A stretch of DNA of 64,000 bases, from contig JAJECT010000034.1 of NCBI GenBank assembly GCA_022821845.1, positions 3,038 through 67,037 of the forward strand, read 5' to 3'. The first letter of the stretch is position 1, and each line of letters opens with the position of its first letter. A program made the position numbers and the translations under genes. This document shows positions 3,032 through 44,873 of the stretch, in pieces. A model generated the notes under the pieces. That model searched no databases and was not told where the DNA came from. It saw only the letters and a list, made by a program, of their open reading frames with translations. Source of the stretch: Rhodothermales bacterium. GTDB taxonomy: Bacteria; Bacteroidota; Rhodothermia; Rhodothermales; VXPQ01.

Positions 3032-3061
3032 AAGAGGTGGTTATAAAATAACCCCGCCTCC

Positions 3062-11025: not shown

Positions 11026-12540
<1,515 letters not shown>

Positions 12541-12741
12541 TCAAAAGAGTTATTGCGCAACAAATCCAACCGAATTGTACGCCTTCCCGCGGTTATAGAT
12601 CGCAAAGAATGTGCGAAACCGGATCGGAAACGCCCGCCGCCGCATAGCGCGTTCCAGCGGGTACGAAAAAAAGGAGAGGGACGGTTTTGCCGCCCCCCTC
12701 CTTTTCCGGTTTATCGCGCGATATTTGCGTATCCCGCTGGT

Positions 12742-15639
12742 TTAGTTCCAGTCGAAGTTGTACCGTACGCGGGCGTAGTAGAAGGCTCCGTTGAAGCCGA
12801 ACGGGGTGAACTGCCCGTACTTGTTGCCTACGCCGTCCGCGGCGCCCGGATATTCCTTCGGATAGGTGTTCAGCACGTTCTGCGCGCCGAGCGTAAACGT
12901 CAGGTAATCCGTGAACGGATGGGACGCCTCGACGTCGAAGAGTATGCGGGCCGGATAGTCGGTCGTCTCTCCGGGATCCGATTCGTAGTAGGGCGTTTCG
13001 CCGTCGTAGTAGCCGTCCCAGTAGCTTCCGCGCACGAGGACGCTCGTTCCGCCCCGGAAAGCGTGCGTGACGGACAAGTTGCCGCGCACGTTGGGCAGCC
13101 CTTCTTCGAGAATCCGTATCCGCGTATCGCTCAGGGTCGCGTCATTGTGCTCGGTCACCTTGGTAGCCGTCCAGTTCCAGGCGGCGCTGAACGTCGTGCT
13201 GGAACCGTTCTGGCCCGCTACCCGGTAGGCGCCCACGAGGTCGAGGCCGCGCGTACGCGTTGCGAAGTCGTTGATGAAGAAGCGGAACCGCTTGAGTACG
13301 CCGCCAGGTCGGATGATTTCCTCTTCCAGCAGGGCCTCGATTTCCGTTGTGCTGAGGGCGAAGTTTTGACTCGTCGTGAGCCGATCCGACATGCCGATCT
13401 GGAAAAAGTCCGCCGAAACGATCAGGGGACCCTGGTCGAACACCGCCCCTATGGCGAGGTTGACGGATTTTTCGGGTTCCAGCGGTTCGCCGCCGTACCG
13501 ATCAGCCAGCAACGAGGTCGAGGGAATCGTCCCGTTGTTGGTCAGATCCATGATTTCGGGATCGTAGATCGTCGAGATGTTGAAGGCGTTCTGCTGTCCC
13601 GGCGTGGGCGCGCGGAAGCCCGTGCTTGCGCTGGCGCGCAGCGCAAACGTCTCGGAGAGGCCCATCCGGCCTGCGACTTTTCCGTTGACCGTCGTTCCGA
13701 AGTCCGAAAAATTCTCAATGCGGCCCGCCACGCTGACGTTCCAGTCCTGTAGCGGATCCTGCATTTCGAGCTCTGTGTAGGCCGCGAAATTGCTGCGGTT
13801 CCAATCGCCCGCCGTCAGGGGGCCGAAACCGGTGAACCCGTTCGAGCCGGGCGTAAAGCCCTGCCTTGCAAGCGGTCCCTCGGTCCAGGACTCCGTATCG
13901 CCCTGCGTGATTTCGAAGGTTTCCTGGCGCCACTCGCCGCCGCCCGCGATATTGAGCCGGTCGTTCAAGGGATACGAAAGGTCCACGTTCAGGTTGATTT
14001 CCTGCTGGTCGTAAATCCCGGGATTGAAGTACGGCGTACAAGCCTGGTCGGGTACGTGGGGCGATTCGCCCTCGTCGCTGCACGGCTGGTTGGGTCCCAG
14101 CGAGGCGTTCACCGTGTTGTACATGTAGAAGTCCATGTTGGACTTGCCCCAGCTTGCGCTGGCGTCCCAACCCAGCTTGCCCCGGGTTCCCCGGAGACCC
14201 ACTACGGCGGAGGCGTCGAGCACGTTCGCGCCGAACTGCGGGGTGAAGCCGCCCGGCAGGATTTTCTGGAAGGTGAAGCAGTTGGGGTTGTTGAGCACCT
14301 CGTTCCAGGCCTGCGTGTCCGACACGACGCCGCCGGAGACCCGGACTTCGGGGCAGCCGGCCGATCCGTCGAGTACGCCGTCCTGGGCGTCCAGCAAATC
14401 GCCTACGAGAAGGATGGATTCGTCGTTGGCGTTCGAGGTGCCGTAGACCCCGCTGCGCGTGTTCGGATTACGGAAGTAGAACCCGCCTTCGACCTGCTTG
14501 CTCACGTAATTTCCGTGGCCATAGGCCTCCATTTGGTCGTTGAAGGGGTGTCCTGCGTTGACCCACAACTTGACTTCGTTGTTCACTTCGGGCGACCCCC
14601 AGATTTGCGCAGGTTCGCGCACGGCGCTATTGCCCGCGCCGATGAGGCTGATCGCGTCGTTGCGCTGTACGCTGCGGTCGGTGGGTAGCGTGTTGCCAAA
14701 CTCCCCGGTGAGATTGAGGAAGCCCTCTGCGCCAAGCGGCAGCCCGACATTGGCCGAGATGGCGTACATGTCTCCGTCGCCCGGCAGGGCGCCCCGATCT
14801 ACCCGGTTGCTCGTATCGCCGAGGAGGTGTCCGCCCGTCTTGATGGAGATGGAGCCGCCGGACCGATCTTCCTTAAGCACGAGATTCATCACGCCGGCAA
14901 TGGCGTCCGAACCGTACTGGGCGGCCGCGCCGTCGCGCAACACTTCTGCCTGTTCAAGGGCCAGGCCGGGAATCAGCGCGATGTCGGGTCCCTGGGCGCC
15001 GTCGGCGAGGCCGTTGCCGTACCAGGTGATGACCGCGGTGCGGTGCCGACGCTTGCCGTTGACGAGCACCAGCGTATGGTCGGGCGCCAGGCCGCGCAGG
15101 TTCGCCGGACGCGCGAACGTCGCTGCGTCGCTGATGGGCTGAACGTTGACGTTGAACGAGGGCACCACATTGCGCAACAGGTTGGCGAAGTCCGTATCTC
15201 CCTGATTCACGAAATCGTCGCTGCGAATCACGTCGATGGGCACGGGCGATTCCGTAACCGTTCGCGGCTGCGAGCGGCTGCCGACCACGGCCAGGCCTGC
15301 AAGCAGGATGGTGGTTTCGTTCATGGTCGCGTCGAGCTGGACCGTTTCGCCGTCCGCTACTTCGACTTCCATGGACACCGGTTCATACCCGAGCAGGCGA
15401 AAATGCACCATATGGGTTCCCGCAGGCACTTGGGTAATCACGTAGTTTCCGTCGGCGTCGCTAAGGTCGCCGAGGTTCAGCGCCGTGATGGCCACCTGTA
15501 CGTCGGGCAAACTCATGCCGTTCTCGTCGCTAACCGTCCCTTCAAGGGCTCCCTGCGCAAAAAGCGAGGCAGGCCCAAAAGCCAACATGGTGGCCAGCAT
15601 GGTTACGGCGGCCAATGCGTGTAGTATTCGGTTCTTCAT
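12742..15639 (-). CDS. TonB-dependent outer-membrane receptor with N-terminal carboxypeptidase-regulatory-like domain
   Basis: Signal peptide, then GTVSDENGMSLPDVQVAI...GNYVITQVPAGTHMVHFRLLGYEP, then a plug domain (DVIRSDD, NLRGLAPDHTLVLVNGKR). A C-terminal beta-barrel ends in RVRYNFDWN. Confidence 0.9.
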   Translation of the reverse strand: MKNRILHALAAVTMLATMLAFGPASLFAQGALEGTVSDENGMSLPDVQVAITALNLGDLSDADGNYVITQVPAGTHMVHFRLLGYEPVSMEVEVADGETVQLDATMNETTILLAGLAVVGSRSQPRTVTESPVPIDVIRSDDFVNQGDTDFANLLRNVVPSFNVNVQPISDAATFARPANLRGLAPDHTLVLVNGKRRHRTAVITWYGNGLADGAQGPDIALIPGLALEQAEVLRDGAAAQYGSDAIAGVMNLVLKEDRSGGSISIKTGGHLLGDTSNRVDRGALPGDGDMYAISANVGLPLGAEGFLNLTGEFGNTLPTDRSVQRNDAISLIGAGNSAVREPAQIWGSPEVNNEVKLWVNAGHPFNDQMEAYGHGNYVSKQVEGGFYFRNPNTRSGVYGTSNANDESILLVGDLLDAQDGVLDGSAGCPEVRVSGGVVSDTQAWNEVLNNPNCFTFQKILPGGFTPQFGANVLDASAVVGLRGTRGKLGWDASASWGKSNMDFYMYNTVNASLGPNQPCSDEGESPHVPDQACTPYFNPGIYDQQEINLNVDLSYPLNDRLNIAGGGEWRQETFEITQGDTESWTEGPLARQGFTPGSNGFTGFGPLTAGDWNRSNFAAYTELEMQDPLQDWNVSVAGRIENFSDFGTTVNGKVAGRMGLSETFALRASASTGFRAPTPGQQNAFNISTIYDPEIMDLTNNGTIPSTSLLADRYGGEPLEPEKSVNLAIGAVFDQGPLIVSADFFQIGMSDRLTTSQNFALSTTEIEALLEEEIIRPGGVLKRFRFFINDFATRTRGLDLVGAYRVAGQNGSSTTFSAAWNWTATKVTEHNDATLSDTRIRILEEGLPNVRGNLSVTHAFRGGTSVLVRGSYWDGYYDGETPYYESDPGETTDYPARILFDVEASHPFTDYLTFTLGAQNVLNTYPKEYPGAADGVGNKYGQFTPFGFNGAFYYARVRYNFDWN

Positions 15640-29476: not shown

Positions 29477-29539
29477 TGATTGACATCCTTTCCACCGCCT
29501 GCGCGAGCCCAAACCCTTTCCAAGACAATTCATGAGATC

Positions 29540-31348
29540 ATGGAAGTCAAACTACGTAACCTCACTCACCTTTTCGTTCAACCGGGCCAGTACGAGATAC
29601 CGAGGTTCCAGCGCCCATACGTCTGGACCCGGGACAAACAGTGGATGCCGCTCTGGGAAGATGTTCAGCATATGGCGGAACGTATCCTCGCGGCACGACG
29701 CGACGGCTCCCCGCAACCTCAGCCCCATTTTATGGGTGCGGTGGTGCTGCAGCAGATTGCTAATGTAACCGGCTCGCTTCCGCGACGCATCGTAGTGGAC
29801 GGGCAACAACGCCTCACCACGCTCCAGCTTCTTCTCGACGCGGCGCAGGAAGTCTTTTTACGCAGGAATATCGCTGATCCTGCCGCCCGGCTTGAGGACT
29901 TGGTGTTGAACCAGCCGAAATACCAGCGTGGCAACGCGAACTACGCATTCAAGGTTTGGCCTACCGATTCAGACCAGGAGGCGTTTCGACATGCGATGGT
30001 CAATGGCTTGTCGGGAGGCGAATGGCCCAAATCGCGGATCGTACAGGCCCATGAATTCTTCAAGGATCAGGTAGACCAGTGGGTTGACGAAGAGGAGGGG
30101 CTGGATGCGGACGCGAACGAGCGAGCCGAGGCGCTGGAGGAAGTACTGTCGCAGCTATTGGAATTGGTTGTCATCGACTTGGGTGCATCGGATAACCCTC
30201 ATATCATTTTCGAGACCTTGAACGCTCGGGGCACGCCGCTTCGCCAGTCTGACTTGATGAAGAATATGATCCTGCACGAGGCAGAGAAAACCGGTATCGG
30301 CAAAAAAGTGACTTGGCCGTTCGAAGTTTCATGGTGGGATGAGGAAATTGAGCAGGGGCGACTCAGGCGCCCTCGCATCGACGTGTTCCTTAACTACTGG
30401 CTGGCGATGCGTATGCGCCGGGAAATTGTAGCTGCGGACGTGTTTTTGTCGTTCCAACGGTATTACGGAGGACAAGAACATGCCGCGATTAGCGACATTT
30501 TGGCTGATATCGCGAGCGTCAGTTTGGCCTATCGTCGCCTTGAAAAAGAGGAGCTGGACGGAGTGTGGGCGGCGTTTACTCCTCGCAGGAAAGTCATGCA
30601 AGCAGCCGTGGCGACCCCCGTTTTGTTGTGGTTGCTTTCGTCCCAAACGGAGCCGGACCAAGTATTCAGGGCCATCAAGGCACTGGAAAGCTATCTGGTG
30701 CGACGGATGGTGTGTCGTATGACCACCAAGAACTACAACAAGACGTTTATTGAACTCGTTCGGCGACTTGAACACGCTGGTCCGGCGACGGCAGGCGATA
30801 CAATCATTGAATTCCTCGGCGAACAGGAGGCGTACGCCACGCTTTGGCCCAACGACAATCTTGTGCTGGAAGCCATATCCAATAAGCCTTTGTACCGGCT
30901 ACTCTCGCGTAGACGAATGAGAATGGTCCTGGATGGGATTGAGGAGGCGCTCTGGACCACCAAATCCGAAGGCGGGCGGCGCCAAACTGCGTTGACGATC
31001 GAGCATATCATGCCGCGGAGCTGGCGGGGACACTGGCCAGAGCCAGAGCCGACGGACGGCCCCGAAGAACCAGATGAGAGGCGAAACCGACTGCTTGATT
31101 CGCTTGGCAATCTAACGCTCGTCACCCAGCCGTTGAATTCGTCGCTTTCTAACGGACCCTGGGCAGACAAGCGGAAGGGACTCCTGGGGCACAGTACGCT
31201 GTTTCTCAACAAGGACTTACTGGAGCATTTCCAGGATCATGTGTGGGACGAAGATGCGATCTACGCCAGGGCGGAGCGGCTGCATAGGGCATTTGTGAAG
31301 GCGTGGCCGCACGGCGCCGATATTGGCGCCGGATCCGCGACAGGTTAA
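29540..31348 (+). CDS. GmrSD-family type IV (modification-dependent) restriction endonuclease, DUF262 plus DUF1524
   Basis: N-terminal YEIPRFQRPYVW and VVDGQQRLTTL (ParB-like NTPase). C-terminal His-Me finger TIEHIMPRSW...LGNLTLVTQPLNSSLSN. The start is taken at ATG 29540; the ORF is open from 29480. Confidence 0.88.
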   Translation: MEVKLRNLTHLFVQPGQYEIPRFQRPYVWTRDKQWMPLWEDVQHMAERILAARRDGSPQPQPHFMGAVVLQQIANVTGSLPRRIVVDGQQRLTTLQLLLDAAQEVFLRRNIADPAARLEDLVLNQPKYQRGNANYAFKVWPTDSDQEAFRHAMVNGLSGGEWPKSRIVQAHEFFKDQVDQWVDEEEGLDADANERAEALEEVLSQLLELVVIDLGASDNPHIIFETLNARGTPLRQSDLMKNMILHEAEKTGIGKKVTWPFEVSWWDEEIEQGRLRRPRIDVFLNYWLAMRMRREIVAADVFLSFQRYYGGQEHAAISDILADIASVSLAYRRLEKEELDGVWAAFTPRRKVMQAAVATPVLLWLLSSQTEPDQVFRAIKALESYLVRRMVCRMTTKNYNKTFIELVRRLEHAGPATAGDTIIEFLGEQEAYATLWPNDNLVLEAISNKPLYRLLSRRRMRMVLDGIEEALWTTKSEGGRRQTALTIEHIMPRSWRGHWPEPEPTDGPEEPDERRNRLLDSLGNLTLVTQPLNSSLSNGPWADKRKGLLGHSTLFLNKDLLEHFQDHVWDEDAIYARAERLHRAFVKAWPHGADIGAGSATG

Positions 31349-31366
31349 ATCCGCCGCGTTTTTTTT
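31327..31366 (+). terminator. Rho-independent terminator after the GmrSD gene
   Basis: The stem cgccggat (31327-31334) pairs with atccg..gcg (31349-31358) with a CC bulge, and is followed by T8 (31359-31366). The stop codon lies in the loop. Confidence 0.5.
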
Positions 31367-31386
31367 GGAAACCCTTTGGCTTCTGC

Positions 31387-31416
31387 TTGACATTTCGATT
31401 CTAAATTTCGTATCAT
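31387..31416 (+). promoter_or_regulatory. Sigma70-type promoter, module copy B
   Basis: TTGACA (31387-31392), an 18-nt spacer, then TATCAT (31411-31416). Confidence 0.55.
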
Positions 31417-31424
31417 AGTGCCCA

Positions 31425-31740
31425 CCATCGGTTTTCAGTAAACATTCCATTCGGTACGGACCATGCCAGCCTCCTCCCCCGACAATCGGCCTATCATGCC
31501 GGAGGCGCTTGGACGTACCCGTAACCCGTTGGGGCACAAAGAAGAGCCCCCCCCCCTCGACTTTGTCCTGATCATTGGGCTCGCGGCGTAGCGCAAATTC
31601 TGTCGCTGACGCTTACGGGGTGTGTCAAAAGTAACACGGCGAATCGTGCGGTTCGCGGACGAAGCCGTTTGGTCCTGTTCTTCGCCGCAGCGCAAAGATT
31701 GGTACGCGATGTTTCTTGTCAATGCCCAATCCGAAACGCA
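31425..31740 (+). repeat. Conserved leader / candidate ncRNA module, copy B
   Basis: Indel-free alignment to 29161-29476. Confidence 0.9.
31463..31591 (+). CDS. Candidate 42-codon sORF inside module copy B
   Basis: Encodes MPASSPDNRPIMPEALGRTRNPLGHKEEPPPLDFVLIIGLAA, with the same start and stop register as copy A. Confidence 0.3.
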   Translation: MPASSPDNRPIMPEALGRTRNPLGHKEEPPPLDFVLIIGLAA

Positions 31741-32151
31741 ATAAAAATCCGAACCCTGTTTCTTGCGGCGGCCTTGATGCTGGCAGCCTGCGGACCTATG
31801 CAAGCGGAACGGCGGGAAGCGGACGCGCAAACGGATACCGTGTACTATTATAAACTTGCCCCGGTCCTTTCTCCTTGTCTTGATGCGTTCCGGCAAGCTT
31901 TGTATCCCGTAGCCGACTTATCCCTTTTCGTACCCCCTCCGGGGCATTCTGATCTTTTCCCGGCCTATTGGGCTTGCCGGACGCTTGACGAATGGACGGA
32001 AGCAAGCGAACGGTTTCCGGTGGTGTTGCAACTGGGCGGAGTAGACCCCGTTTGCTATGCGCTCAAAGTTTGCAACTGGGCGGCGGACGAACAAGAAGGC
32101 TACGCCGCCGCAATACAGGGTTCCCCGATATGCGAAGCGGTTGCGGTTTAG
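31699..32151 (+). CDS. Hypothetical lipoprotein
   Basis: Lipobox LMLAAC follows a K/R-containing n-region. It is Cys-rich with no recognised domain. The start is uncertain (TTG at 31699 or 31669) and overlaps the end of the module. Confidence 0.5.
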   Translation: MVRDVSCQCPIRNAIKIRTLFLAAALMLAACGPMQAERREADAQTDTVYYYKLAPVLSPCLDAFRQALYPVADLSLFVPPPGHSDLFPAYWACRTLDEWTEASERFPVVLQLGGVDPVCYALKVCNWAADEQEGYAAAIQGSPICEAVAV

Positions 32152-32207
32152 GCTACTTGTCGCTATTCCATTTTTTGTGCTCCATCCATTAACCCATCGG
32201 AAACGCT

Positions 32208-32669
32208 ATGTTTACGACAATCGTTATTATTTGCGTCATTTTCTGGCTTATCAAGAAAATGATCAATAGTTACGCGGATCACAACAGGAGAAAAGAGGGG
32301 GCATCAGGAACACCATTTGCGCGAGCATACTACGCACAGGCGCGGGCATTGTTTGCGGAAGGGGATTACGAATATCTTGAACGCGGTGTAACCACCAAGA
32401 AAGAAGATGCGGCGAGTGCTAAATACAATGCTGAGCGAGCGTGGAGTAAGGACAACGCTTCCTTTTTGCGGGAACAGACTCGCATGGCTCATTTACACGC
32501 CGCACGGGCGCAGGTAAACGCTTCGAACTGGCGGCATACGGAGAGAAAGAAAACCGACGTTCCGAAAGAACTGGCGAACAAGGCGGCGGTGGCGTGGGAA
32601 GAGGCGGCGGAAGCGTGGGAGGCGATTGCTGCGGATCACAAAACGAAGGAAAATGATGGAAATGCATGA
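32208..32669 (+). CDS. Hypothetical N-terminally anchored protein
   Basis: ATG start. TM helix FTTIVIICVIFWLI is followed by a helical, charged domain. Confidence 0.5.
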   Translation: MFTTIVIICVIFWLIKKMINSYADHNRRKEGASGTPFARAYYAQARALFAEGDYEYLERGVTTKKEDAASAKYNAERAWSKDNASFLREQTRMAHLHAARAQVNASNWRHTERKKTDVPKELANKAAVAWEEAAEAWEAIAADHKTKENDGNA

Positions 32670-33120
32670 ATCTTGGCCCTTGATTGTGGGCCTAGGGGCA
32701 GTAATGGGCATAAACCCCTTCGCCGCCGCGTTCGCTCTGGGGCTGGCTGGGGCAACGGGAACGGTTGATTTGCCGGGGGGTCTTGATGCGTTGCAAAAGA
32801 TCTGGGTAATCGTTCTTTCCGGCCTTCTGTATGGCGGGGAAGCGATTCTCGACAAGATTCCGGGCGTGGATACTGTATTTAACGCCATTGAAACCGTTGT
32901 TCGTGTGCCTGCGGCCAGCATGGCGGGCTATGCGGTAACGGGCGATCTGTTTGGAATCATGGCCGGGGGCATTTCGGGTACGACCCTTCACGGGTCAAAG
33001 ACACTTTTGCGTATCCCTATGACCGGTGCGCCGGGCCTTAACATACCCGTATCGTTTGGCGAAGACGCCGCCGTTTTTTATGCCCTGTGGTGGATGTGGC
33101 AACAGGGGTGGTTTGCATGA
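32653..33120 (+). CDS. DUF4126-like integral membrane protein
   Basis: Gly/Ala-rich helices LIVGLGAVMGINPFAAAFALGLAG and DKIPGVDTVFNAIETVVRVPAA fit DUF4126. It overlaps the upstream gene by 17 nt. Confidence 0.7.
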   Translation: MMEMHESWPLIVGLGAVMGINPFAAAFALGLAGATGTVDLPGGLDALQKIWVIVLSGLLYGGEAILDKIPGVDTVFNAIETVVRVPAASMAGYAVTGDLFGIMAGGISGTTLHGSKTLLRIPMTGAPGLNIPVSFGEDAAVFYALWWMWQQGWFA

Positions 33121-33228
33121 AAACGGCTTTCTCCTTCGGTTTTTGGCGGACGGGGAAAGCGGGATATCTTTGTGACGGGGCGAAAACCCGTTTCGCCTGA
33201 AACCTCACCAACAAAACCTCCGAATACA

Positions 33229-33456
33229 ATGGCACTTAAACCAGAAGATGCGAAATCCGATCAAATTTGTCTTTTTGTTGCGGGATGCACGGGCTGCAAA
33301 AAGCAGGACGTGGTAAAGAGTATAGGCGTTCAGTTTGGATCAATAGATACGCGTATAAACCTCGGCTGGATCGTCGATGCAAAAGACAATGTGCAAAAAC
33401 GCACCGAACTTTATGTTACGCATAAGTGGTTGCATCATGTGCGTGGCGGGCTGTAG
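33229..33456 (+). CDS. Small hypothetical protein with a CxxC motif
   Basis: 75 aa from MALKPEDAK, containing CLFVAGCTGC. No recognised family. Confidence 0.35.
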   Translation: MALKPEDAKSDQICLFVAGCTGCKKQDVVKSIGVQFGSIDTRINLGWIVDAKDNVQKRTELYVTHKWLHHVRGGL

Positions 33457-33705
33457 CATGCACTTCGAGAATTGCACACAATCCGGGCGGGCATACGCTC
33501 GTTTTTCCAGCGACCGACCTGCGTGAGGCCGGACAATTCCGTACCAGAGGGGGCAAGGTCCCCGGCCATGCCTATGCGGGCGGAATGCCCCGAAAATTCG
33601 CCATTGAAGTCAACGGTAGCACAGATAAGGAGGGGCACATCCACAATTCCCACGGGACGTTTTTCCCGTCCCCCGCCAAGACAACAGCATAATCAAGTTG
33701 TTTTT

Positions 33706-33733
33706 GTCAGATATTTCATATAATTTTTCTGAC
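33706..33733 (+). promoter_or_regulatory. Promoter with perfect -10 flanked by an inverted repeat (candidate autoregulatory operator)
   Basis: TATAAT at 33719-33724 is bracketed by GTCAGA (33706-33711) and TCTGAC (33728-33733). It lies 20 nt upstream of the DUF6088 start codon. Confidence 0.45.
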
Positions 33734-33753
33734 CAACCACGCAAAAAACCTTC

Positions 33754-34407
33754 ATGGCAACCACAGCAAGCGCCATACTGGAGCGAATCCGGCACCAGCG
33801 GGATCAGGTCTGGACGCCGAAAGATTTCCTGGACCTCGGCAAACGCGCTGCGGTTGACAAGGCCCTCTCTCGCCTTGTCGGCAGCGAAAAACTGCGGCGC
33901 ATAGGGCATGGACTGTACGACATGCCTCGATTCAATCCAATTCTGAAACGCTTCGCGCCGGTCAGCCTCAATGCTGCCATCGCCGCCATCGCCCGACGAG
34001 ACAACATACGCATCATGCCCGATGGCTCCGTGGCGGCGAACAGGCTTGGCCTGACCAACGCTGTCCCGGCCAAGCCGAATTATCTTACGGACGGCGGAAC
34101 GCGATCACTGATTGTCGATGGACGTATGATCTACCTGCGACACGCCGGACCCAAGGTAATGTACTGGACAGGCAACAAGCGAACCGGCCCGGTCGTTCAG
34201 GCAATTCGCTGGCTTGGCCCGCAAGCAGTCCAGGACGAGCAGGTCCTCTCCGCGCTAAAACGCCGCCTCCCCGATTCCGTGAAGCAGGATTTGGTGCGCA
34301 ACGCCCGCCATTTACCCGGATGGATCCTGTCTTTGGCGAATGAACTCGTGGACAATCCGCCCGATGCCCCCGCAACGCGATGCGAGAAGCATTCAGGAAA
34401 TTTATGA
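33754..34407 (+). CDS. DUF6088 / AbiEi-like antitoxin-family protein
   Basis: ILERIRHQRDQVWTPKDFLDLG...VDKALSRLVGSEKLRRIGHGLY is the wHTH N-terminus of AbiEi/DUF6088 proteins. No AbiEii nucleotidyltransferase follows. Confidence 0.8.
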   Translation: MATTASAILERIRHQRDQVWTPKDFLDLGKRAAVDKALSRLVGSEKLRRIGHGLYDMPRFNPILKRFAPVSLNAAIAAIARRDNIRIMPDGSVAANRLGLTNAVPAKPNYLTDGGTRSLIVDGRMIYLRHAGPKVMYWTGNKRTGPVVQAIRWLGPQAVQDEQVLSALKRRLPDSVKQDLVRNARHLPGWILSLANELVDNPPDAPATRCEKHSGNL

Positions 34408-35608: not shown

Positions 35609-36910
35609 TCAACCCTGCAAGGCGGCAATACTTTCGATCAATTCCTGAAAGTCGGGGTCCTCGCGCAAGTTCGGGCCGGTCCGAACGGGGGTATTCGAAA
35701 GGGGGGGCCGTCGAAGAGGCGTTGCAAAGCGTAGCCATCCATTCCTGCGTTGTGGTTGATCCCCTGCGATCTGCGGTTGGCAGGGACGGTCCAGCCCGGC
35801 CGTTTTGATGCCTCGCTTGATTTCTTGCGCCCGCCAATGGTTCAACATGATGGCTTTCCCGAACCCACATTCCGGTCCAAGTTGCGCGGGCAGCACAGCC
35901 TCATAGGGACGAGGCGACCCGGCCTCGGCGACCAGGAGTTTGAGCGTTGACGCCAGGCGCTTCGCTGGATCCGGCCAGCAGATGAATTCCGGCCACCCCG
36001 TATCGGCCAGGGAAAAGTCTACGACAAGCAGCCGCAGATAATCCGGCGAGGGCGCGCCGCACGGGCGTTTCTGTAATTCGCCCAACAGTTTACGCCCCCA
36101 CTGGCTCCGGGCTGTGCTTTGGGGCGTTCCAAAGTGGTCGAAAAACATTCTGGCTTCGGCTGATCGCATGGATGTATGTTGCGTAACAATACGATACGCC
36201 GGATCGGGATGCAGGGTGTCGATCGTTACGCGCAAGCGGAGCGATGCCGTGGCGTCTTGAAACAAACGCTCCTCTCCCGCTTGCGCACGGGGAATCCATG
36301 CTGCGGCTTCTTCTCTCAACGCAGCAAGCCACGCGCGGACAAGATTTTCGCGCATAGCGTCGTCGAAGAATAAATCGTCGTCGTCCTCCTTCTCCTCATC
36401 CTGACGCAGGCTTTCGAGGCGGAGCGTTATTTCAAACCCCGTATCGACTTCAAGGTACTTGAATGTCATGCCCAGATAGCGCCCGACCAATTGGCAACCG
36501 AAAAAATCCGCAGGACAATAGACCTCGACGCGCATACGCGACGAACCGGCGGTCAGTTCGATGTCGCCGCGCCTGGTTTCCGGCGGGGCGGAAGCCGGTT
36601 GCGCATGCTCTGCTCCGAATACGCCCTGAAGATGCGCAAGCAAATTGAATTCCGACAGCGCTCGGTGGAATGGCAACAGGTCGGTTTGTTCGACTACGCG
36701 CTTGCCGATGCTCCCGGATGCGGTAAGATGGTCGTCTATAAAGGCCAGCAACGCCTCGATATGCTCGTACTGCGCGTTCCCAAGCAGGCGGACAATTTCC
36801 AGTTCGCTTCGACCGGATTCGGGCAGTTTGCCCCTTATTCGTTCCGCAATGCGCGGGAAACGCTCCAGGACGTTCTGGACTTCGCTGGTGATCGGATACC
36901 GAATGGCCAT
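35609..36910 (-). CDS. Hypothetical 433-aa protein, no recognised domain
   Basis: Long ORF with an ATG start 4 nt after the upstream antitoxin stop. It contains an acidic block QDEEKEDDDDLFFDD and a possible nuclease-like segment RGDIELT...RVEVYCP (speculative). Confidence 0.7.
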   Translation of the reverse strand: MAIRYPITSEVQNVLERFPRIAERIRGKLPESGRSELEIVRLLGNAQYEHIEALLAFIDDHLTASGSIGKRVVEQTDLLPFHRALSEFNLLAHLQGVFGAEHAQPASAPPETRRGDIELTAGSSRMRVEVYCPADFFGCQLVGRYLGMTFKYLEVDTGFEITLRLESLRQDEEKEDDDDLFFDDAMRENLVRAWLAALREEAAAWIPRAQAGEERLFQDATASLRLRVTIDTLHPDPAYRIVTQHTSMRSAEARMFFDHFGTPQSTARSQWGRKLLGELQKRPCGAPSPDYLRLLVVDFSLADTGWPEFICWPDPAKRLASTLKLLVAEAGSPRPYEAVLPAQLGPECGFGKAIMLNHWRAQEIKRGIKTAGLDRPCQPQIAGDQPQRRNGWLRFATPLRRPPLSNTPVRTGPNLREDPDFQELIESIAALQG

Positions 36911-36913
36911 GTC

Positions 36914-37273
36914 TCATCCTGTGGTTTCCACTGCCGTAGGTTGGGTTTGACTCCTGCGACGACGAGCGTGGCGCAGGCCCGTCGCGGCGGCTTGTTTGTC
37001 AAGGCCTTGTTCCGGTAACGTTTTCCGCACCGGATAGCCTATAGCGAGAGACGGCCACCGCATGTCGTTCAGCCGCGCCCGCAGCTGAATGGCTTTCTTC
37101 GCTACGTCTGGATACTCCTCCCGGTACGCCTCGGCGATATTGTCCAAGGCGCGCATAAGAATAACCAGCGCCTCTTCTTCCGCCGCCACGTTCAGATAAC
37201 CGGTGGCGAATTCCGGGTCTTTCCTTAATTCTCCCCGAAGCCATTCGTAGTGGTCTACGCCCAAGTTGCTCAT
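36914..37273 (-). CDS. Antitoxin-like protein, copy 1
   Basis: Its start overlaps the toxin stop (ATGA). Sequence begins MSNLGVDHYEWLRGELRKDPEFATGYLNVAAEEE. Confidence 0.6.
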   Translation of the reverse strand: MSNLGVDHYEWLRGELRKDPEFATGYLNVAAEEEALVILMRALDNIAEAYREEYPDVAKKAIQLRARLNDMRWPSLAIGYPVRKTLPEQGLDKQAAATGLRHARRRRSQTQPTAVETTG

Positions 37274-37344
37274 GATTTTGCGGTGTTATGTCTTGTTTTC
37301 CCGTGTCTCGCCTTCCAGTCCCGCAGTCGCTTTTTCGCTGTGGC
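37028..37344. repeat. Segmental duplication, upper copy
   Basis: Counterpart of 35290-35603. Confidence 0.8.
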
Positions 37345-37620
37345 GATGTCGGCGCGTTGTGTTTTCTTGCTACCTGCGCACAAAAGCAAAATGACTGTTT
37401 TCCCTGCGCGAGCGAAGTATACGCGATATCCGGGGCCATAATGGATACGCAGTTCCCGTATTGTCCCGCCTACTGCTATGCAGTCGCCGAAATTGCCTTC
37501 CGCAAGACGGTCAAGCCGCGTTGCAATTCGCTCTCTGGCTCTCGGGTCCCGAAGATCATCCAGCCACCGCTGCACCGGATCGCGTGCATTTTCCGTAGTG
37601 TAATGCTGGATATCGAACAT
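37270..37620 (-). CDS. RelE/ParE-superfamily addiction-module killer toxin
   Basis: YTTENARDPVQRWLDDLRDPRARERIATRLDRLAEGNFGDCIAVGGTIRELRIHYGPGYRVYF matches the killer-protein family that precedes HigA-like antidotes. Confidence 0.85.
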   Translation of the reverse strand: MFDIQHYTTENARDPVQRWLDDLRDPRARERIATRLDRLAEGNFGDCIAVGGTIRELRIHYGPGYRVYFARAGKTVILLLCAGSKKTQRADIATAKKRLRDWKARHGKTRHNTAKS

Positions 37621-39246: not shown

Positions 39247-39365
39247 GGTGCGATGCGGTCAGGTCTGGAAAGGGGGGCAATGCGTGTCAGAGAGGGAGGA
39301 CATGACAAAATATCATTTTCGGGAAAATTCCTGGACGAAAACCGGGTCGGCGGGCGTTTTCACGG

Positions 39366-40379
39366 TCATTTCTTCGTAATAAGACCAGCGGCGGCCCGTC
39401 CCCGCGCCGTGAGGCGGTATTTCTGATTTCTTGCCGTGGGCGCGTCGGGATGGGTCATTTCCACCAGTCCGGCGTCCAGCGCGGGCCAAATGTAGTTGTT
39501 GCGAAACGTCGGCCGGTGGGAGAGGCCAAGCGCCCCCATGAGTGCGCGCGCGGACCTGGGACCGCCTTGCAACCCTTCGATTAGACGCGCTACTTGGTCG
39601 GTTGCATGATCGCTTTCTTGGTCGGTCTCCCCGCAATCCAGCACCGCCTCAAGAATAGCCTCCAGCATATAGACGATAAACGGGGTGCTTTCCCCTTTCG
39701 AAGAACTTTCCCGAATGGCCTCATAGTACGCGCTTTGCCGCGCATAAACGAGGCTTTCCACCGGCACGTCGGCGAACAGGGACTTCCAGCGCGTCAGGAT
39801 CAGCGTTTGCCACAGCCTGCCCATGCGCCCGTTGCCGTCCTCGAAAGGATGAATAAACTCGAATTCGTAGTGGAATACCGAACTGGCGATCAAGGGATGT
39901 TCGTCGGCGCTGTCCAGCCAGGCAAGGAGATTCGACATGAGGCCTGGTACGAGGTGGGTGGGCGGCGCGATATGCTGCACTTTGCCGCCGCCGAATACCC
40001 CCACGCCGCGGCGCCGGTACTGTCCGGGGGCGTCGAGCAGCGCCGTCATGAGCATCCGGTGCGCCGTGAGCAAGTCGTCCTCGCTTGCGGGGTTCCACTG
40101 CGGGAACTGGTCGTAGACCTTGATGGCGTTGCGCGCTTCCTGGACTTCCCGCAAGGGCGCGATGACCGGCTTGCCGTCGAGAATGGTCGAAATCTCGTCC
40201 TAGCTGAGCGTATTCCCTTCGATCGCCAGCGAGCCCTGGATGGCGCGGATGCGGTTGATCCGCCGCAGACGCAAACTCATCGGCTGCGCGACGGCCTCCG
40301 CGCGGCCGATGGCTTCGCCGATCTGCGCGACCAGGTCGAGAATGGCGGGGATGATGGCGTATGGCGGCGCGGTACTCAT
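39366..40379 (-). pseudogene. Fic-domain protein interrupted by one in-frame TAG (40200-40202)
   Basis: ORFs 40200..40424 and 39366..40154 are in the same frame. The read-through gives ...SLAIEGNTLS*DEISTILDGKPV..., then the Fic motif HPFEDGNGRMGR and a C-terminal wHTH. Confidence 0.8.
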
Positions 40380-40398
40380 GAACGTGGCAGACAGACGA

Positions 40399-41646
40399 TC
40401 AGAAGATGTCCTCTCGCCCTTCATGCGGGGACGGCTTCGCCCAGATGGTCAGGCGCAGTTCCTCGCCGAATAGTTCGTATTCGGGTCGTCGCCCGGAATG
40501 CGCTTCGCTGGCTTCAAGTATGCCGCGTACGCCCTCGCCCCTTGATTCCAGAAATGCGCGTCCAGTGTGGCGGCTCTTCATTCGGGACAGGAAATTCACC
40601 AGGAGTTGATTCCGGGTGAAAACGCGGTATGGCATTGTTTTGATCGAAAGCGTATTGGGCAACGATCCTGGACTGTATATCTCCATCCTGTCCGCGAAGA
40701 GAAATAGTCTGATCTTTCCGCCGGAAATCGAGTAATCGCGGTGAGCGACGGCATTCACAATGGCTTCGTGTACGGCGTTCGGCACGTACTGGGGATGATC
40801 CTCGCGTCCGGCGTTCTTGCGTGCAGGCCTCAGCATGAATCGATCAACAAACTCGGCAGCGTCATCAATCTGTTCATTTGCCGGACCCCTGATCGACTCG
40901 GCGTGCACCAGGTCGTCGGACGTAAGGCGTGTTCCGCGGTATACTGCCGCCTCCACGAACGCCGAGGGCAAGTGCTTGTCCGGCGTTGCGCCGAATGCCA
41001 ATAGTCCGGCAACAGTAGGTTGTGCGACGTTGTTATCGCTTGTTTCTACGACACGCGTATTTCGCAGGAGATCAAGCCACGGTATCAGGGTGGGGCCGTT
41101 CGCGAAAAATTCCTTCAGGCGGCGGTCGTCAAGATCGTCAACCGTTGCCGTGGGAACGCGTTTCTCATCGAAAACGAATGTTCGTCCGCGCTCTTGAAAG
41201 AGGCGAGCCAGAGCGGCGCCTTTAAGCAATTGTTTCGTCGCGCCAACCCGGATGTAGTGACGTCCGCTACTTGTGCCATGAACGTACAGTCCGCGCTTTA
41301 CTTCCACCAGGATTACGAGGCGTTCCGAATTGCCTGGGTCGGCCAGTCGCTCCTTGCGGAGAATCGGGTGAATAGGAGGATCGCAATTGTTGTTGGCGAT
41401 GTTGATGGCCCAAGACTCCACCACGTTCGCACGGTCCGGCGGAATGCCGCGCACAACGCCGTCATCGTCCACGCCTAAAAAAATCACTCCCCCCTCGGCG
41501 TTGGCGAACGCGACCATTTCGCTTGCCATTTCCTCGGTGTTTGGAGAACGAACGCCGTGAGTGCGCAAATCGACCTGCTTAAACTCAGCCCTTGCATCCT
41601 CCAGGGCCTCTAACTGTCGTCTAATTTCGTCTAAAGTGTCGAACAT
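40399..41646 (-). CDS. AlbA_2 (Schlafen-like) DNA-binding domain plus HATPase_c_4-type protein
   Basis: N-terminal EDARAEFKQ...MVAFANAEGGVIFLGVDDDG pattern and C-terminal EAIVNAVAHRDYS. It lies 16 nt after the upstream ATPase gene. Confidence 0.8.
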   Translation of the reverse strand: MFDTLDEIRRQLEALEDARAEFKQVDLRTHGVRSPNTEEMASEMVAFANAEGGVIFLGVDDDGVVRGIPPDRANVVESWAINIANNNCDPPIHPILRKERLADPGNSERLVILVEVKRGLYVHGTSSGRHYIRVGATKQLLKGAALARLFQERGRTFVFDEKRVPTATVDDLDDRRLKEFFANGPTLIPWLDLLRNTRVVETSDNNVAQPTVAGLLAFGATPDKHLPSAFVEAAVYRGTRLTSDDLVHAESIRGPANEQIDDAAEFVDRFMLRPARKNAGREDHPQYVPNAVHEAIVNAVAHRDYSISGGKIRLFLFADRMEIYSPGSLPNTLSIKTMPYRVFTRNQLLVNFLSRMKSRHTGRAFLESRGEGVRGILEASEAHSGRRPEYELFGEELRLTIWAKPSPHEGREDIF

Positions 41647-41662
41647 GTGCGCAGGGCTTGTT

Positions 41663-44600
41663 TCAGTAACCGTAGCGTTCCCGTCTAAGCCGAAATGCCT
41701 CGGCGCTTCCTTCCATGATTCTGCTGACGTGGTTCTTCACGTCCGGGCGGTCGATGCTACCGGCGCTAATGACCTTGCCTAACCGATTTTTCGCTCCGAG
41801 CGCCACAATCAGCTCGGCATCCCCGTTCACGGGAATATTGGCGTTGTGGGTGACGATAATGACCTGCCGGGAAAATTTGCGTCTTCGCAGCAAGTCTACA
41901 ACCACATTGTAGACGTACTGGTTGTCCAGGTCGTCTTCCGGTTGGTCGATGATAATCGGCTGGTCGCCGGCGGATAGAAGCAGGCTCAGGATCGCAGTAC
42001 TTTTCTGTCCAATGGACCCGGTCTCAATTGTCTTGAAAGCGCCATCGTCCGTCCTGACCTGCGCTTCAATGCGATCCTCTGGAAGAAAACGTTCTATTTC
42101 GTCGATCCTGATGCGTTCCCGTCGTTCAAGGGCATTGAGAAAGTTTTTGGTCAATTGTGCATTCGGACCAACAAGGGCGACAACCTTTGATGCGGATGCT
42201 TCAATAGCGGCGCCCTTGTCGGTTGTAGCCCCCAAATCTTCGCGGATCGCCTTTGCAAGGTCTGCAATACGGTCAGGCACGACGCCATTCGGTGCGAAGA
42301 CGTGCTCGCAAAGCGCCGTCCAGTCGCGTTCTTGTACTCCCGCGCCGCCGAACCAATGCTCGCGACGCGACTCGAAGTCCCCCCGATCCCGAAATGCATA
42401 AACCTCCAGGCGGACGTCGGCATCCATATCTTCGAGCGCCTTCGCCTGTTCCAGGCGTGCCGCCAAACGCGCTTTATGCGTTTCGACAAGTCGTAAACGC
42501 GTCTCGCCAAGATTACGTTCAATGTCGCTGAGTTCCTGATCAGTTTTCTGGAGCGTTTCCAATTCGCGCTCCAGTTGCGCCCTGCGCTGAAGCAGCTTCT
42601 CGTGCTGGGCGAAGTCTACGCCTCGTTCAACCATCTCTTGTCGTAGCGCATCGTATTCAGCGTGCGATTTGTCGTAATCCGCCTGCCACTTTTCGGCTGT
42701 TTCCTGTTTGATTGCGGTGGCCAGGGCTCGCAAGGAATTCGCTTCTTCTCGCAATGCCGCCGCAGCGCCGTTGCATGCGGTTGCCACGCGGCCGGCTACC
42801 GAATCAAGCCAGGTTGTCGTTGGGGTCGATTTTGGAACCCCGCGAGCACCCGAGTCGTCCTGTTCAACCACACCGGCCTCCTCATCAAGTCGGGCAGCGA
42901 TTTCGTTCAAGTCTTTCTGGATACTTTCCAACCAGCGGCGCTCTCGCTCGAAGGCGTCGAATCGTTGCAATACTTCCTTGCGCCCTTCGCTTTCAAGAAA
43001 GCCGATCTGGTCGCATATCTTTTTTAGTTCGGTCTTGATGGAGGGGTATTTCCGACGTTGCTCCTCAAGCCGCGAACGCGTTGTCTGAAACTGTGCGAGC
43101 TTCTCTCCGTGCGACCGGCGCAGGTTCTCGATCTTGCGCAGACGGTCGGGGTCGATCAGGGCATCGAGTTCGGTACGCTGCGATGCGGGATTGCGGGCGA
43201 TACGCGCTATCTGGCGCTGCGAAAGAATGCGCGGCACGATAAGACTGCGCACGTCCAACGCTGCCGGCGCGGCGTTGGGTTGGTTTGCGTCCGGGATGAC
43301 CGTAAGACCGTTCGCTGATCGGCGAACAAGGTAATGGCGCTCGGCCACCACCAGGTCGATATCCATTTCGTAATCGGGGAGCAGCGTACCCCTGGAGTCT
43401 CCGAAGTCGCGTTCTTTCTTCGACAAGAGCAGGGGGTGCACCTGATCGCGGATATCACTGGTCTCGTGGTTGCGCAGGTCTTCGCTGCGAGCGCGATCCA
43501 GTGTGTGGCGCAGGTATTCGACAACAGTAGACTTTCCCGAGCCGCGACCGCCGATAAGCGTCGTAAGGCATGCGTTGAAAGGCACGTCGATATCCTCAAA
43601 GAAGTCCGTGCATCGGACACGCAAGCGCTTGATTCTGGTATAATGTTGTCCCGGGGGGCCTTCCGTCATGCGGCGCAGCCGGGATTGCGGGTCAAGCAGG
43701 GCGAGCCGGATCCCCTCTACGTCCGGGACTTCCATCTTGAGCCAACTGTAGCGACTGCCGATGGCCTCATAATTGTGCGGGTCCGAGCCCTCAACGAGTG
43801 GCCAATGGCCCTGATTCCGTACCCCTTGCCGACGAGACGTTGGCAACTTGTCCCAATCTTCGCCCTGTTTCGCAACCGTCCATTGGCACAGGAGGTCCTG
43901 AAAAGCCTGTGGTAATCTTTCGAAAGGCCGGGTCGTTTCAAAACCGTTCCATTCCGTGCGCGCAACCGCCCACTGCCTCAGGTGTCCCTTCATTTCGTCC
44001 CAAAGGTTGGCGGCAACACCAGACTTGTCAGCTCCGGTTTCTTTGGCGACTCCGCGATTACCGTCAGCATGGGCCGGCAGCAGCACGAAACTCAGGTTCC
44101 GCTTGCCCGTCGCAGGTTTTGCGTACTCGTAGAGCTTTTTAAGAAAATCATTGAGCGATTCGCCCGTTGCAAGGGGTGTTCCTGTCGTTGAATTGAAGCA
44201 TTCTCGCGCCTGAAAAACATGGCGGATAACCCCTTCTATATCGGCGGGCTCGGTATCGGATGCAAAGATGACAAGGAAGTGGATGGGGCGCTCCCCCCCG
44301 ACGCTAAACTCTACCGCGGGCAAGATCGCAGGCATAGCCTTGCCTTCGTTCTTCGCGCGCGTCTCGATTTTCTGAAACAGCGGTTTGAGCTGTTTGAAGC
44401 CTTCAATGCTGTTATGGTCCGCGAGCGCGACGAGGTCCATACCGTTCCCGTCATCGGCCGATTGGCAGGCCCCGACGAAACGTTCGGCAATCTCTTCAAG
44501 GCGCGTGGAGTCGCCCTGCGTCAGGGCAGCAATAGCTCCGCGTATATCCCCTCCGAATCTCTTTTCGCCATCGAAAGGAGTGTGTACGTGCAGATCGCAA

Positions 44601-44731
44601 CGCAACCAACGGGCGCCGGGTTCGACATGCGTTGTAGTCAATTCAGTTATCTCGCTGTAAGTGTCAAAAATAGTGGCGTACAAGGCGCTATACCGGATTG
44701 CAGGGCGCTCTGCGCTTGGTATCCACACCAT
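41663..44731 (-). CDS. PHP phosphoesterase fused to an SMC/Rad50-like ABC ATPase with coiled-coil insert (Ppl-like)
   Basis: PHP motifs CDLHVHTPFD and ADHNSIEG. Walker A GGRGSGKST. A long E/R/L/Q-rich coiled-coil segment. SIGQKSTAILSLLL, Walker B PIIIDQPEDDLD, and VTHNANI. Confidence 0.8.
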   Translation of the reverse strand: MVWIPSAERPAIRYSALYATIFDTYSEITELTTTHVEPGARWLRCDLHVHTPFDGEKRFGGDIRGAIAALTQGDSTRLEEIAERFVGACQSADDGNGMDLVALADHNSIEGFKQLKPLFQKIETRAKNEGKAMPAILPAVEFSVGGERPIHFLVIFASDTEPADIEGVIRHVFQARECFNSTTGTPLATGESLNDFLKKLYEYAKPATGKRNLSFVLLPAHADGNRGVAKETGADKSGVAANLWDEMKGHLRQWAVARTEWNGFETTRPFERLPQAFQDLLCQWTVAKQGEDWDKLPTSRRQGVRNQGHWPLVEGSDPHNYEAIGSRYSWLKMEVPDVEGIRLALLDPQSRLRRMTEGPPGQHYTRIKRLRVRCTDFFEDIDVPFNACLTTLIGGRGSGKSTVVEYLRHTLDRARSEDLRNHETSDIRDQVHPLLLSKKERDFGDSRGTLLPDYEMDIDLVVAERHYLVRRSANGLTVIPDANQPNAAPAALDVRSLIVPRILSQRQIARIARNPASQRTELDALIDPDRLRKIENLRRSHGEKLAQFQTTRSRLEEQRRKYPSIKTELKKICDQIGFLESEGRKEVLQRFDAFERERRWLESIQKDLNEIAARLDEEAGVVEQDDSGARGVPKSTPTTTWLDSVAGRVATACNGAAAALREEANSLRALATAIKQETAEKWQADYDKSHAEYDALRQEMVERGVDFAQHEKLLQRRAQLERELETLQKTDQELSDIERNLGETRLRLVETHKARLAARLEQAKALEDMDADVRLEVYAFRDRGDFESRREHWFGGAGVQERDWTALCEHVFAPNGVVPDRIADLAKAIREDLGATTDKGAAIEASASKVVALVGPNAQLTKNFLNALERRERIRIDEIERFLPEDRIEAQVRTDDGAFKTIETGSIGQKSTAILSLLLSAGDQPIIIDQPEDDLDNQYVYNVVVDLLRRRKFSRQVIIVTHNANIPVNGDAELIVALGAKNRLGKVISAGSIDRPDVKNHVSRIMEGSAEAFRLRRERYGY

Positions 44732-44873
44732 AGAGTACAGTTTTGCGCCAGCGCCACGGCATGCCTTGCGTCGAATTGCAGCGCTGCCCTTATCGTCATC
44801 ACGCCATCAACTCTTCAAAGTTCCTGCAATTTGGGTAGCCAGACACGCTGTATCAAGCAAGCGCCCCCGCAAT

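Follow-up and report, generated by a model that had tools for sequence, protein, structure and literature searches.

A TrlF-TrlG-type gene pair in a Rhodothermales genome as a candidate growth-arrest or anti-phage cassette

The stretch of 64,000 nucleotides analyzed here (hereinafter the window), positions 3,038 to 67,037 of the forward strand of contig JAJECT010000034.1 from the Rhodothermales bacterium assembly GCA_022821845.1, carries three closely spaced open reading frames (ORFs) on its minus strand, which we term gene A, gene B, and, after its principal domain, the Fic gene. An earlier reading of the letters alone (the original prediction) had proposed them as a three-gene defence locus made up of an ATPase with PHP motifs, a Schlafen-like protein, and a Fic protein. 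Our analysis retains the first two of these genes as a cassette comparable to the TrlF-TrlG pair of Photorhabdus and sets the third apart. The ORFs lie exactly where they had been placed, with spacers of 16 nt from A to B and 19 nt from B to Fic, and the in-frame stop reported in Fic is likewise present, as a TAG at codon 60 (40202..40200). Pfam upholds the domain calls, namely AlbA_2 with HATPase_c_4 in B and Fic with Fic-like_C in the third gene. The features of the cassette are:

40373..44854, minus strand: two-gene cassette, consisting of the upstream region, A, the 16-nt spacer, B, the 19-nt spacer, and the first two codons of Fic
41663..44731, minus strand: gene A, ORF of 1022 aa, assigned to the TrlF family
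43652..44629, minus strand: N-terminal domain of A (residues 35-360), a putative metal-phosphoesterase (PHP-type), Ppl-like
43526..43552, minus strand: Walker A motif of A, GGRGSGKST (K400)
42428..43150, minus strand: coiled-coil insert of A (about residues 528-768), which splits the ATPase head into two halves in the AlphaFold2 model
41924..42016, minus strand: ABC signature SIGQKS and Walker B motif IIIDQPEDDLD of A, found by motif search
40399..41646, minus strand: gene B, ORF of 415 aa, TrlG-like
41578..41601, minus strand: Schlafen nuclease motif of B, E16-DARA-E21-F-K23, which fits the pattern Ex4(E/D)xK
40732..40770, minus strand: GHKL N-box of B, HEAIVNAVAHRDY (E294, N298), putative ATP/Mg2+ ligands identified by motif comparison

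Gene A matches the NCBIfam model for the TrlF family AAA-like ATPase (NF045780) with 469.7 bits against a cut-off of 350, its residues 39-1021 covering positions 2-944 of the 944 in the profile. With the NCBIfam Ppl model (NF042955) it scores 245.2 bits in three separate stretches, below the cut-off of 1000, and with the Spaf_1101 model 203 bits, below the cut-off of 475; the PADLOC Ppl model recovers it at 2.1e-52. Since A falls below the Ppl cut-off and above that of TrlF, these profile comparisons place it in the TrlF family, a sister family of the anti-phage protein Ppl, and not among the Ppl equivalogs. The original prediction had likened the architecture of A to that of Ppl, which is said to have been reported in the Gao et al. 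2020 screen; this stands for the overall architecture and for the homology of the N-terminal domain, and fails for equivalence with Ppl itself. All the motifs that it had quoted from A were found (CDLHVHTPFD, ADHNSIEG, GGRGSGKST, SIGQKSTAILSLLL, IIIDQPEDDLD, and THN), and the Pfam matches in A are to SMC_N and AAA_21.

Conservation of these motifs was followed in relatives drawn from a pattern scan over one genome per GTDB species, in which at least 590 stretches were found to encode A relatives; the scan used two peptide patterns, DQPEDDLD being one, and the 80 loci kept are the best tblastn matches among its hits. The N-terminal domain of A displays a constellation of putative metal ligands, viz., an HxH motif (H48, H50), D105-H106, E141, H151, H221, and D317-x-H319, with H48, H50, D105, H106, E141, H151, H221, and D317 retained in at least 76 of 78 homologs and H319 in 58 of the 78. 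Taken alone, this domain of 326 residues matches the TrlF model at 6e-34 and the N-terminus of Ppl at 3e-15, and the CehA/McbA metallohydrolase model of the PHP superfamily faintly, at 0.035. The Pfam PHP model itself was not detected in the whole of A or in its N-terminal 326 aa, with PHP_C alone appearing at E=0.13; searches of the PDB by sequence and by profile likewise brought no meaningful match to this domain. In the ATPase module, K400 of Walker A is found in all 78 homologs, as is DQPEDDLD, the invariance of the latter being partly by construction, for this peptide served as a search pattern. The coiled-coil insert is modeled as five helices (528-560, 562-582, 585-628, 639-702, and 708-768) with a predicted local distance difference test (pLDDT) score of 75-92, and Foldseek matched the model of A to the heads of SMC, MukB, JetC, RecN, and Rad50 with their coiled coils (E 4e-11 to 1e-7). 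A PDB sequence search with A recovered SMC heads only and no solved relative of Ppl or TrlF.

Two further observations concern this protein. Its Walker B motif (41924..41956, residues 926-936) has a glutamine directly after the aspartate, the position at which ABC ATPases usually carry the catalytic glutamate, an arrangement that would fit a nucleotide switch with slow hydrolysis. Homologs leave the first ~36 codons of A (44624..44731) unmatched, their alignments beginning at about residues 26-39; because this N-terminal stretch is not conserved, translation of A may in fact start further on than the ATG at 44731.

Gene B combines a SLFN_AlbA_2 domain (6e-16; residues 16-141) with a HATPase_c_4 domain (PF13749; 6.9e-18; residues 309-401). 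Its nuclease motif fits the Ex4(E/D)xK pattern defined for Schlafens (PMC13056530), and all 49 B homologs retain E16 and K23, with position 21 being glutamate in 48 and aspartate in one. In the GHKL domain, E294 and N298 are likewise kept in all 49, and have the same spacing as E314 and N318 in RzAgo (10.64898/2026.05.29.728809). A PADLOC pAgo model also recovered B (2.6e-23), the alignment falling in the N-terminal Schlafen-GHKL part of that model (54-436). Foldseek searches with the model of B gave 3lmm as the top match (E 1.6e-14), followed by the GHKL domains of histidine kinases and PDK, and then by SLFN13 and SLFN5; a PDB sequence search with B found no match. The Schlafen and GHKL domains and motifs of B therefore identify it as a stand-alone 'Schlatpase', and the stand-alone Schlafen-GHKL form ('pSlfn-HisKinase') is the commonest architecture among prokaryotic Schlafens, the pSlfns (PMC13056530; 10.64898/2026.05.29.728809).

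The survey of loci reveals a strong association between the two genes. In 52 of the 78 loci that could be assessed by tblastn, the A homolog is followed immediately by a B homolog, encoded on the same strand and starting within ~45 nt of the A end; thus, of the partners listed by the original prediction, the AlbA_2 protein is indeed conserved. Such pairs were seen, among others, in the Planctomycetota, Myxococcota, Bacillota, Acidobacteriota, Chlorobiota, Verrucomicrobiota, and Latescibacterota, as well as on a Methanospirillum contig, and B is retained downstream in many loci where the identity in A has fallen to just 23-29%. In a neighbour-joining (NJ) tree of A, B is distributed over two of the three major clades and has been lost sporadically within them. 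The pairwise identities of A and B are correlated (r=0.85), with none of 500 label permutations exceeding 0.23. The comparisons of order, spacing, and divergence thus argue for A and B forming one unit. The pairing also has side branches: a Rhodothermales metagenome-assembled genome (MAG; OZ242302.1, 8001..11313) holds a degraded copy in which the last ~160 residues of A are left and the B homolog is cut in two by ~1.5 kb of inserted DNA with a 387-aa ORF, and extra B-like Schlafen-GHKL paralogs occur near the TrlF-TrlG pair in two other loci (L060, 8398..15594; L041, 2333..3606; Thermoanaerobaculia).

Comparison with close relatives shows the pair to be present or absent as a block. An ortholog of the ABC-2 permease that neighbours A, 97% identical to it, is encoded by a contig of 3.07 Mb (L089), in which the flanking DNA matches that of the window at ~96% and 92-96% identity by blastn. 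In place of window positions 40373..44854 (4,482 bp), L089 has 47 unrelated nucleotides. A second relative, the Rhodothermales MAG L001, is ~93% identical to the window at the nucleotide level, syntenic with it, and has the same three genes, with Fic intact (12329..13330). The cassette is thus carried by the window and L001 and missing from L089, and from its clean presence or absence relative to L089 it follows that A and B constitute a discrete indel cassette. In a more distant relative (L088; 85% at the protein level), a 220-aa gene, which had no Pfam or PADLOC match, stands between the permease and the sulfatase.

Base composition bears on the same point. The original prediction had all three genes lying in lower-GC DNA inserted between a sulfatase gene and an ABC exporter. 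This is correct for A (0.570) and B (0.565), which together have a GC content of 0.567 against a window mean of 0.612, and they are precisely the segment missing from L089; it is incorrect on both counts for Fic (0.624), which equals the sulfatase (0.623), with the ABC genes at 0.67. What the analysis shows directly is the family to which each protein belongs, the integrity of the catalytic motifs, the order and spacing of the genes, their co-divergence, the presence or absence of the cassette between close strains, and the defence-island context; A with B is a widespread and, it appears, horizontally moving pair.

The setting of the pair, both in the window and elsewhere, agrees with the defence-locus context envisaged at the outset, with the window locus lying among defence and toxin-antitoxin genes and A homologs occurring in restriction-modification (RM), DISARM-like, and BREX-like islands. 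Genes for a GmrSD-type enzyme, for an AbiEi-type antitoxin, and for a Gp49/HigB-type toxin are found in the 15 kb on the left of the locus. Elsewhere, the neighbours of A homologs include HsdM, HsdR, HsdS, type III Mod and Res, SNF2 helicases, GmrSD, and SbcD, and further DUF1156 with DUF499 (DISARM-like), Eco57I/MmeI-type methylases, and AAA_21 with DUF4276; at least 26 of the 80 loci have a defence-type neighbour of this kind, a count that is a lower bound. The pair has also entered plasmids, with 397 plasmid records matched by A and 131 by B. In the E. coli IncC plasmid pNDM102337 (NC_019045.2, 414..11184), the order is HTH-hsdR-TrlF-(B homolog)-hsdS-AAA-hsdM, with the pair lying inside a type I RM operon. 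On a Burkholderia plasmid, TrlF and a B homolog adjoin a PLD restriction enzyme, the E. coli IncF plasmid pVCSW5 has a helicase, a methylase, and TrlF with no B, and many further E. coli plasmid records match A. In pNDM102337 the B homolog after TrlF is annotated as 'RNA-binding domain-containing protein'; the same two product names recur, on features overlapping the match to B, among many further plasmid records from Klebsiella and E. coli.

The genes of the left flank of the window deserve a brief description. The 622-aa GmrSD-type (DUF262/DUF1524) type IV restriction enzyme (29480..31348, plus strand) is also recovered by the PADLOC models Orf5, mREase_IV, and HEC-06. It is followed by ~2.4 kb (31349..33753) with no ORF above 164 aa and no Rfam match, and then by the AbiEi-type antitoxin gene (33754..34407, plus strand; DUF6088; PADLOC AbiEi 2e-53). 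An AbiEii toxin gene was sought downstream of it to ~35300 and none was found, the region having just ORFs of 99-150 aa without family matches; the partner of AbiEi may have been lost or degraded. On the minus strand, 35609..37620 holds the Gp49/HigB-type toxin gene (37270..37620) and then genes for proteins of 119 aa and 433 aa, neither with a Pfam or PADLOC match; these three have the same order in L089 and are aligned in L001. A scan of 39000-45200 for sigma-70 promoters and terminators did no better than on shuffled sequence, and the host probably uses a different promoter type. Rfam found just two tRNAs in the whole window, both distant from the locus, and the cassette is therefore not tRNA-associated.

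The original prediction knew of no described system with this combination of genes. The A and B pair corresponds, by sequence family and published description, to the already described trlF-trlG, the name of which stems from the Temperature Restricting Locus (TRL) of Photorhabdus laumondii, an operon of the form trlR-trlF-trlG (Hapeshi et al. 2020, PMC7554251). A derivation of 'Trl' from the Helicobacter 'tRNA-associated locus' was considered and rejected, the name coming from the Photorhabdus locus. TrlF was annotated as a histidinol phosphatase, and TrlG, mis-annotated as recG, has an AlbA_2 domain (residues 14-128) followed by HATPase_c_4 (residues 298-365) (PMC7554251). The correspondence was drawn through the NCBIfam model named after TrlF, which A passes, and through the published description of TrlG, with which B shares the order of AlbA_2 and HATPase_c_4; the gene order is also the same, with a large PHP-annotated gene preceding a Schlafen-type gene. 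Photorhabdus is gammaproteobacterial, whereas the L001 relative of the window belongs to the Rhodothermales. Strains that have lost trlG, or from which the entire operon has been deleted, grow at 36-37 °C, and complementation restores the restriction; among 29 sequenced tolerant isolates, 19 had a trlG single-nucleotide polymorphism and one an insertion sequence (IS) insertion (PMC7554251). Transcription of the TRL rises on temperature upshift and towards stationary phase, and its authors did not propose phage defence (PMC7554251). Within the library of papers that was searched, we found none tying TrlF or Ppl together with a Schlafen as a defence pair, nor one tying the TRL to phage defence.

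Experimental precedents for the parts are available in the relatives of each protein. Ppl is a single-gene anti-phage system of E. coli (PMC12904381, PMC11482910) and is described as an NTP-inhibited 3'-5' single-stranded DNA exonuclease that is activated by nucleotide depletion and 3'-OH ends (PMC12904381); a phage counter-defence protein directed against it is known (PMC11482910). A shares with Ppl a homologous N-terminal domain, putatively a PHP-type phosphoesterase, and the SMC/ABC-type ATPase with its Walker A, signature, and Walker B motifs; however, Ppl acts alone, whereas A, far under the Ppl cut-off, usually has a dedicated Schlafen-GHKL partner that co-diverges with it. Prokaryotic Schlafens are reported to arrest growth through tRNA cleavage and to protect against phage, and those with fused domains defend as single genes (PMC13056530). 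Schlafen-GHKL modules form active tRNases upon ATP binding (10.64898/2026.05.29.728809). A pairing of the A-B type is absent from the main text of both these papers (PMC13056530; 10.64898/2026.05.29.728809). B shares with the pSlfns and the SLFN-pAgo 'Schlatpase' both the Ex4(E/D)xK and the GHKL E...N motifs; in contrast to them it has no fused sensor domain, the candidate sensor being the separate upstream protein A.

A comparable logic is seen in the anticodon nucleases PrrC and RloC, in which an ABC/Rad50-like ATPase controls a tRNA-cleaving effector and which are often located within type I RM operons. The TrlF-TrlG pair of pNDM102337 is likewise within such an operon. PrrC and RloC differ from the pair in being single polypeptides in which nuclease and ATPase are fused, in lacking a PHP domain, and in having a nuclease domain unrelated to that of B; moreover, the window has no adjacent RM genes.

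Taking these strands together, we consider it likely that 40373..44854 is a self-contained TrlF-TrlG cassette, functioning as a conditional growth-arrest or anti-phage module made up of a sensor nuclease-ATPase and a tRNA-cleaving effector. We infer its biochemical activities, its anti-phage function, and any coupling, physical or regulatory, between A and B, and the roles proposed for A as sensor and for B in translation arrest follow from the reported activities of Ppl and of the Schlafens. A is predicted to join a Ppl-type metal-dependent phosphoesterase or exonuclease domain to an SMC/Rad50-like coiled-coil ATPase and, by analogy with Ppl, would sense DNA ends and nucleotide status and may degrade DNA. 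B would be the growth-arresting effector, in which, as in other prokaryotic Schlafens, ATP binding might lead to oligomerisation and then to tRNA cleavage. The two would be tripped by phage or, as by heat in Photorhabdus, by some other stress, whereupon translation would stop and DNA would be degraded; A may either restrain or activate B. A broader form of this proposal, that TrlF-TrlG is a widespread two-component anti-phage system in which a Ppl-like DNA-end and NTP sensor-nuclease controls a Schlafen-GHKL tRNase, the temperature restriction by which most Photorhabdus fail to grow at 37 °C being heat-triggered autoimmunity of the system, is put forward tentatively, as something that falls just short of probable.

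Several points weigh against this reading of the cassette. The sole recorded phenotype of a TrlF-TrlG pair is temperature-dependent growth arrest, not phage defence, and none of the sequenced tolerant Photorhabdus isolates had a trlF mutation (PMC7554251). TrlF may accordingly be dispensable for the toxicity of TrlG; the missing trlF mutants fit either this or a lethal effect of losing TrlF when TrlG is present. The window has no trlR-like small regulator gene upstream of A, and no trlR ORF fits there, since just 142 nt separate the A start (44731) from the stop of the ABC-2 permease gene (44874). Because the Pfam PHP model and the PDB searches missed the N-terminal domain of A, its putative PHP assignment draws on homology to Ppl and TrlF and on the conserved His/Asp/Glu ligands. 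The AlphaFold2 models are of middling confidence (pLDDT 69 for A and 67 for B), for which reason their fold matches were used just for domain classes. The way in which the 80 loci were chosen makes them a biased sample. Finally, one A clade in the NJ tree, rich in Bacteroidota and Bacillota, is without B, as are several plasmid copies of A; given these, and given that Ppl works alone, coupling between A and B is not obligatory.

These last facts would suit an arrangement in which a Ppl-like nuclease-ATPase and a Schlafen-GHKL RNase merely stand side by side as two independent, uncoupled single-gene defence systems. Both Ppl (PMC11482910, PMC12904381) and the fused-domain Schlafens (PMC13056530) offer precedents for defence by one gene, A persists with no B in an entire clade and several plasmids, and the Photorhabdus screen gave no trlF mutants. 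Nevertheless, 52 of 78 loci, from many phyla, have the two genes in a fixed order, on one strand, and very closely spaced; the two also co-diverge and move jointly as one indel, and ordinary defence-island neighbours shuffle, just as the other neighbours of A do. We therefore regard independent systems as improbable.

The temperature restriction recalls a different possibility, namely a physiological, non-immune module that halts growth under heat or stationary-phase stress or acts in DNA repair, as was first proposed for the TRL. It is this phenotype, the only experimental one, together with the rise in TRL transcription with temperature upshift and towards stationary phase, that speaks for it. 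Such a role sits poorly with a patchy, seemingly horizontal distribution that extends to conjugative plasmids and differs between strains ~96% identical, with the embedding of the pair in RM and DISARM-like operons, and with the presence of phage-defence members in both protein families; we judge it to be a shade less probable still than two independent systems.

The third gene of the locus offers the following features:

39366..40379, minus strand: Fic pseudogene, 337 codons, a neighbour lying outside the cassette
40215..40232, minus strand: N-terminal inhibitory-type motif of Fic, SxxxEG, found by motif search
40200..40202, minus strand: premature TAG at Fic codon 60, just after SxxxEG; CAG (Gln) in L001 and L089
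39816..39851, minus strand: Fic motif HPFEDGNGRMGR (residues 177-188), which fits HxFx(D/E)GNGRxxR

A three-gene system in which Fic works together with A and B is very unlikely: the 19-nt spacing and shared strand of Fic, and the presence of all three genes in L001 with Fic intact, are outweighed by its adjoining A in just one of the 80 loci, that of L001, by a GC content that fits the flanks and not the cassette, by the Fic remnant standing at the site in L089 without A and B, and by its being a pseudogene both in the window and, through a different lesion, in L089.

The history of this gene is separate from that of the pair. Pfam finds Fic at 3.5e-22 and a C-terminal Fic-like_C at 1.2e-25 in the conceptual product. 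A Logan assembly with an identical A has Fic likewise split, into 59 and 262 aa. In L089 the remnant (9679..9909) keeps the 5' part with CAG and has suffered a separate 505-bp deletion of the core. The comparison of these sequences suggests that Fic is an older resident of the site, decaying independently in the window strain and L089, and that it is a separate toxin or defence-type gene, unrelated to the cassette and inactivated in the window. Its nearest described counterpart is SoFic, with which it shares the motif HPFEDGNGRMGR and the N-terminal SxxxEG (PADLOC SoFic 1.7e-43); it differs in scoring 59.6 bits against an NCBIfam cut-off of 550 and in having its frame broken by the TAG, and it is unlinked to the cassette. 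Speculatively, a restart past the TAG (TTG ORF, 39366..40154) would give a Fic protein without the inhibitory motif.

Returning to the cassette, the locus itself is another copy of a named pair (TrlF, TrlG) with a published phenotype, and its value lies in the comparison, which joins three lines of work: the temperature-restriction operon of Photorhabdus, the Ppl defence protein, and the bacterial Schlafen tRNases. It gives the Schlafen-GHKL clade that holds B a dedicated upstream partner in most of the sampled loci and, if A is indeed the sensor, a trigger mechanism for that clade. The pair is also found within a type I RM operon on IncC resistance plasmids, which are of clinical importance. 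If the proposal is true, it would also supply a molecular reason why some Photorhabdus fail to grow at body temperature.

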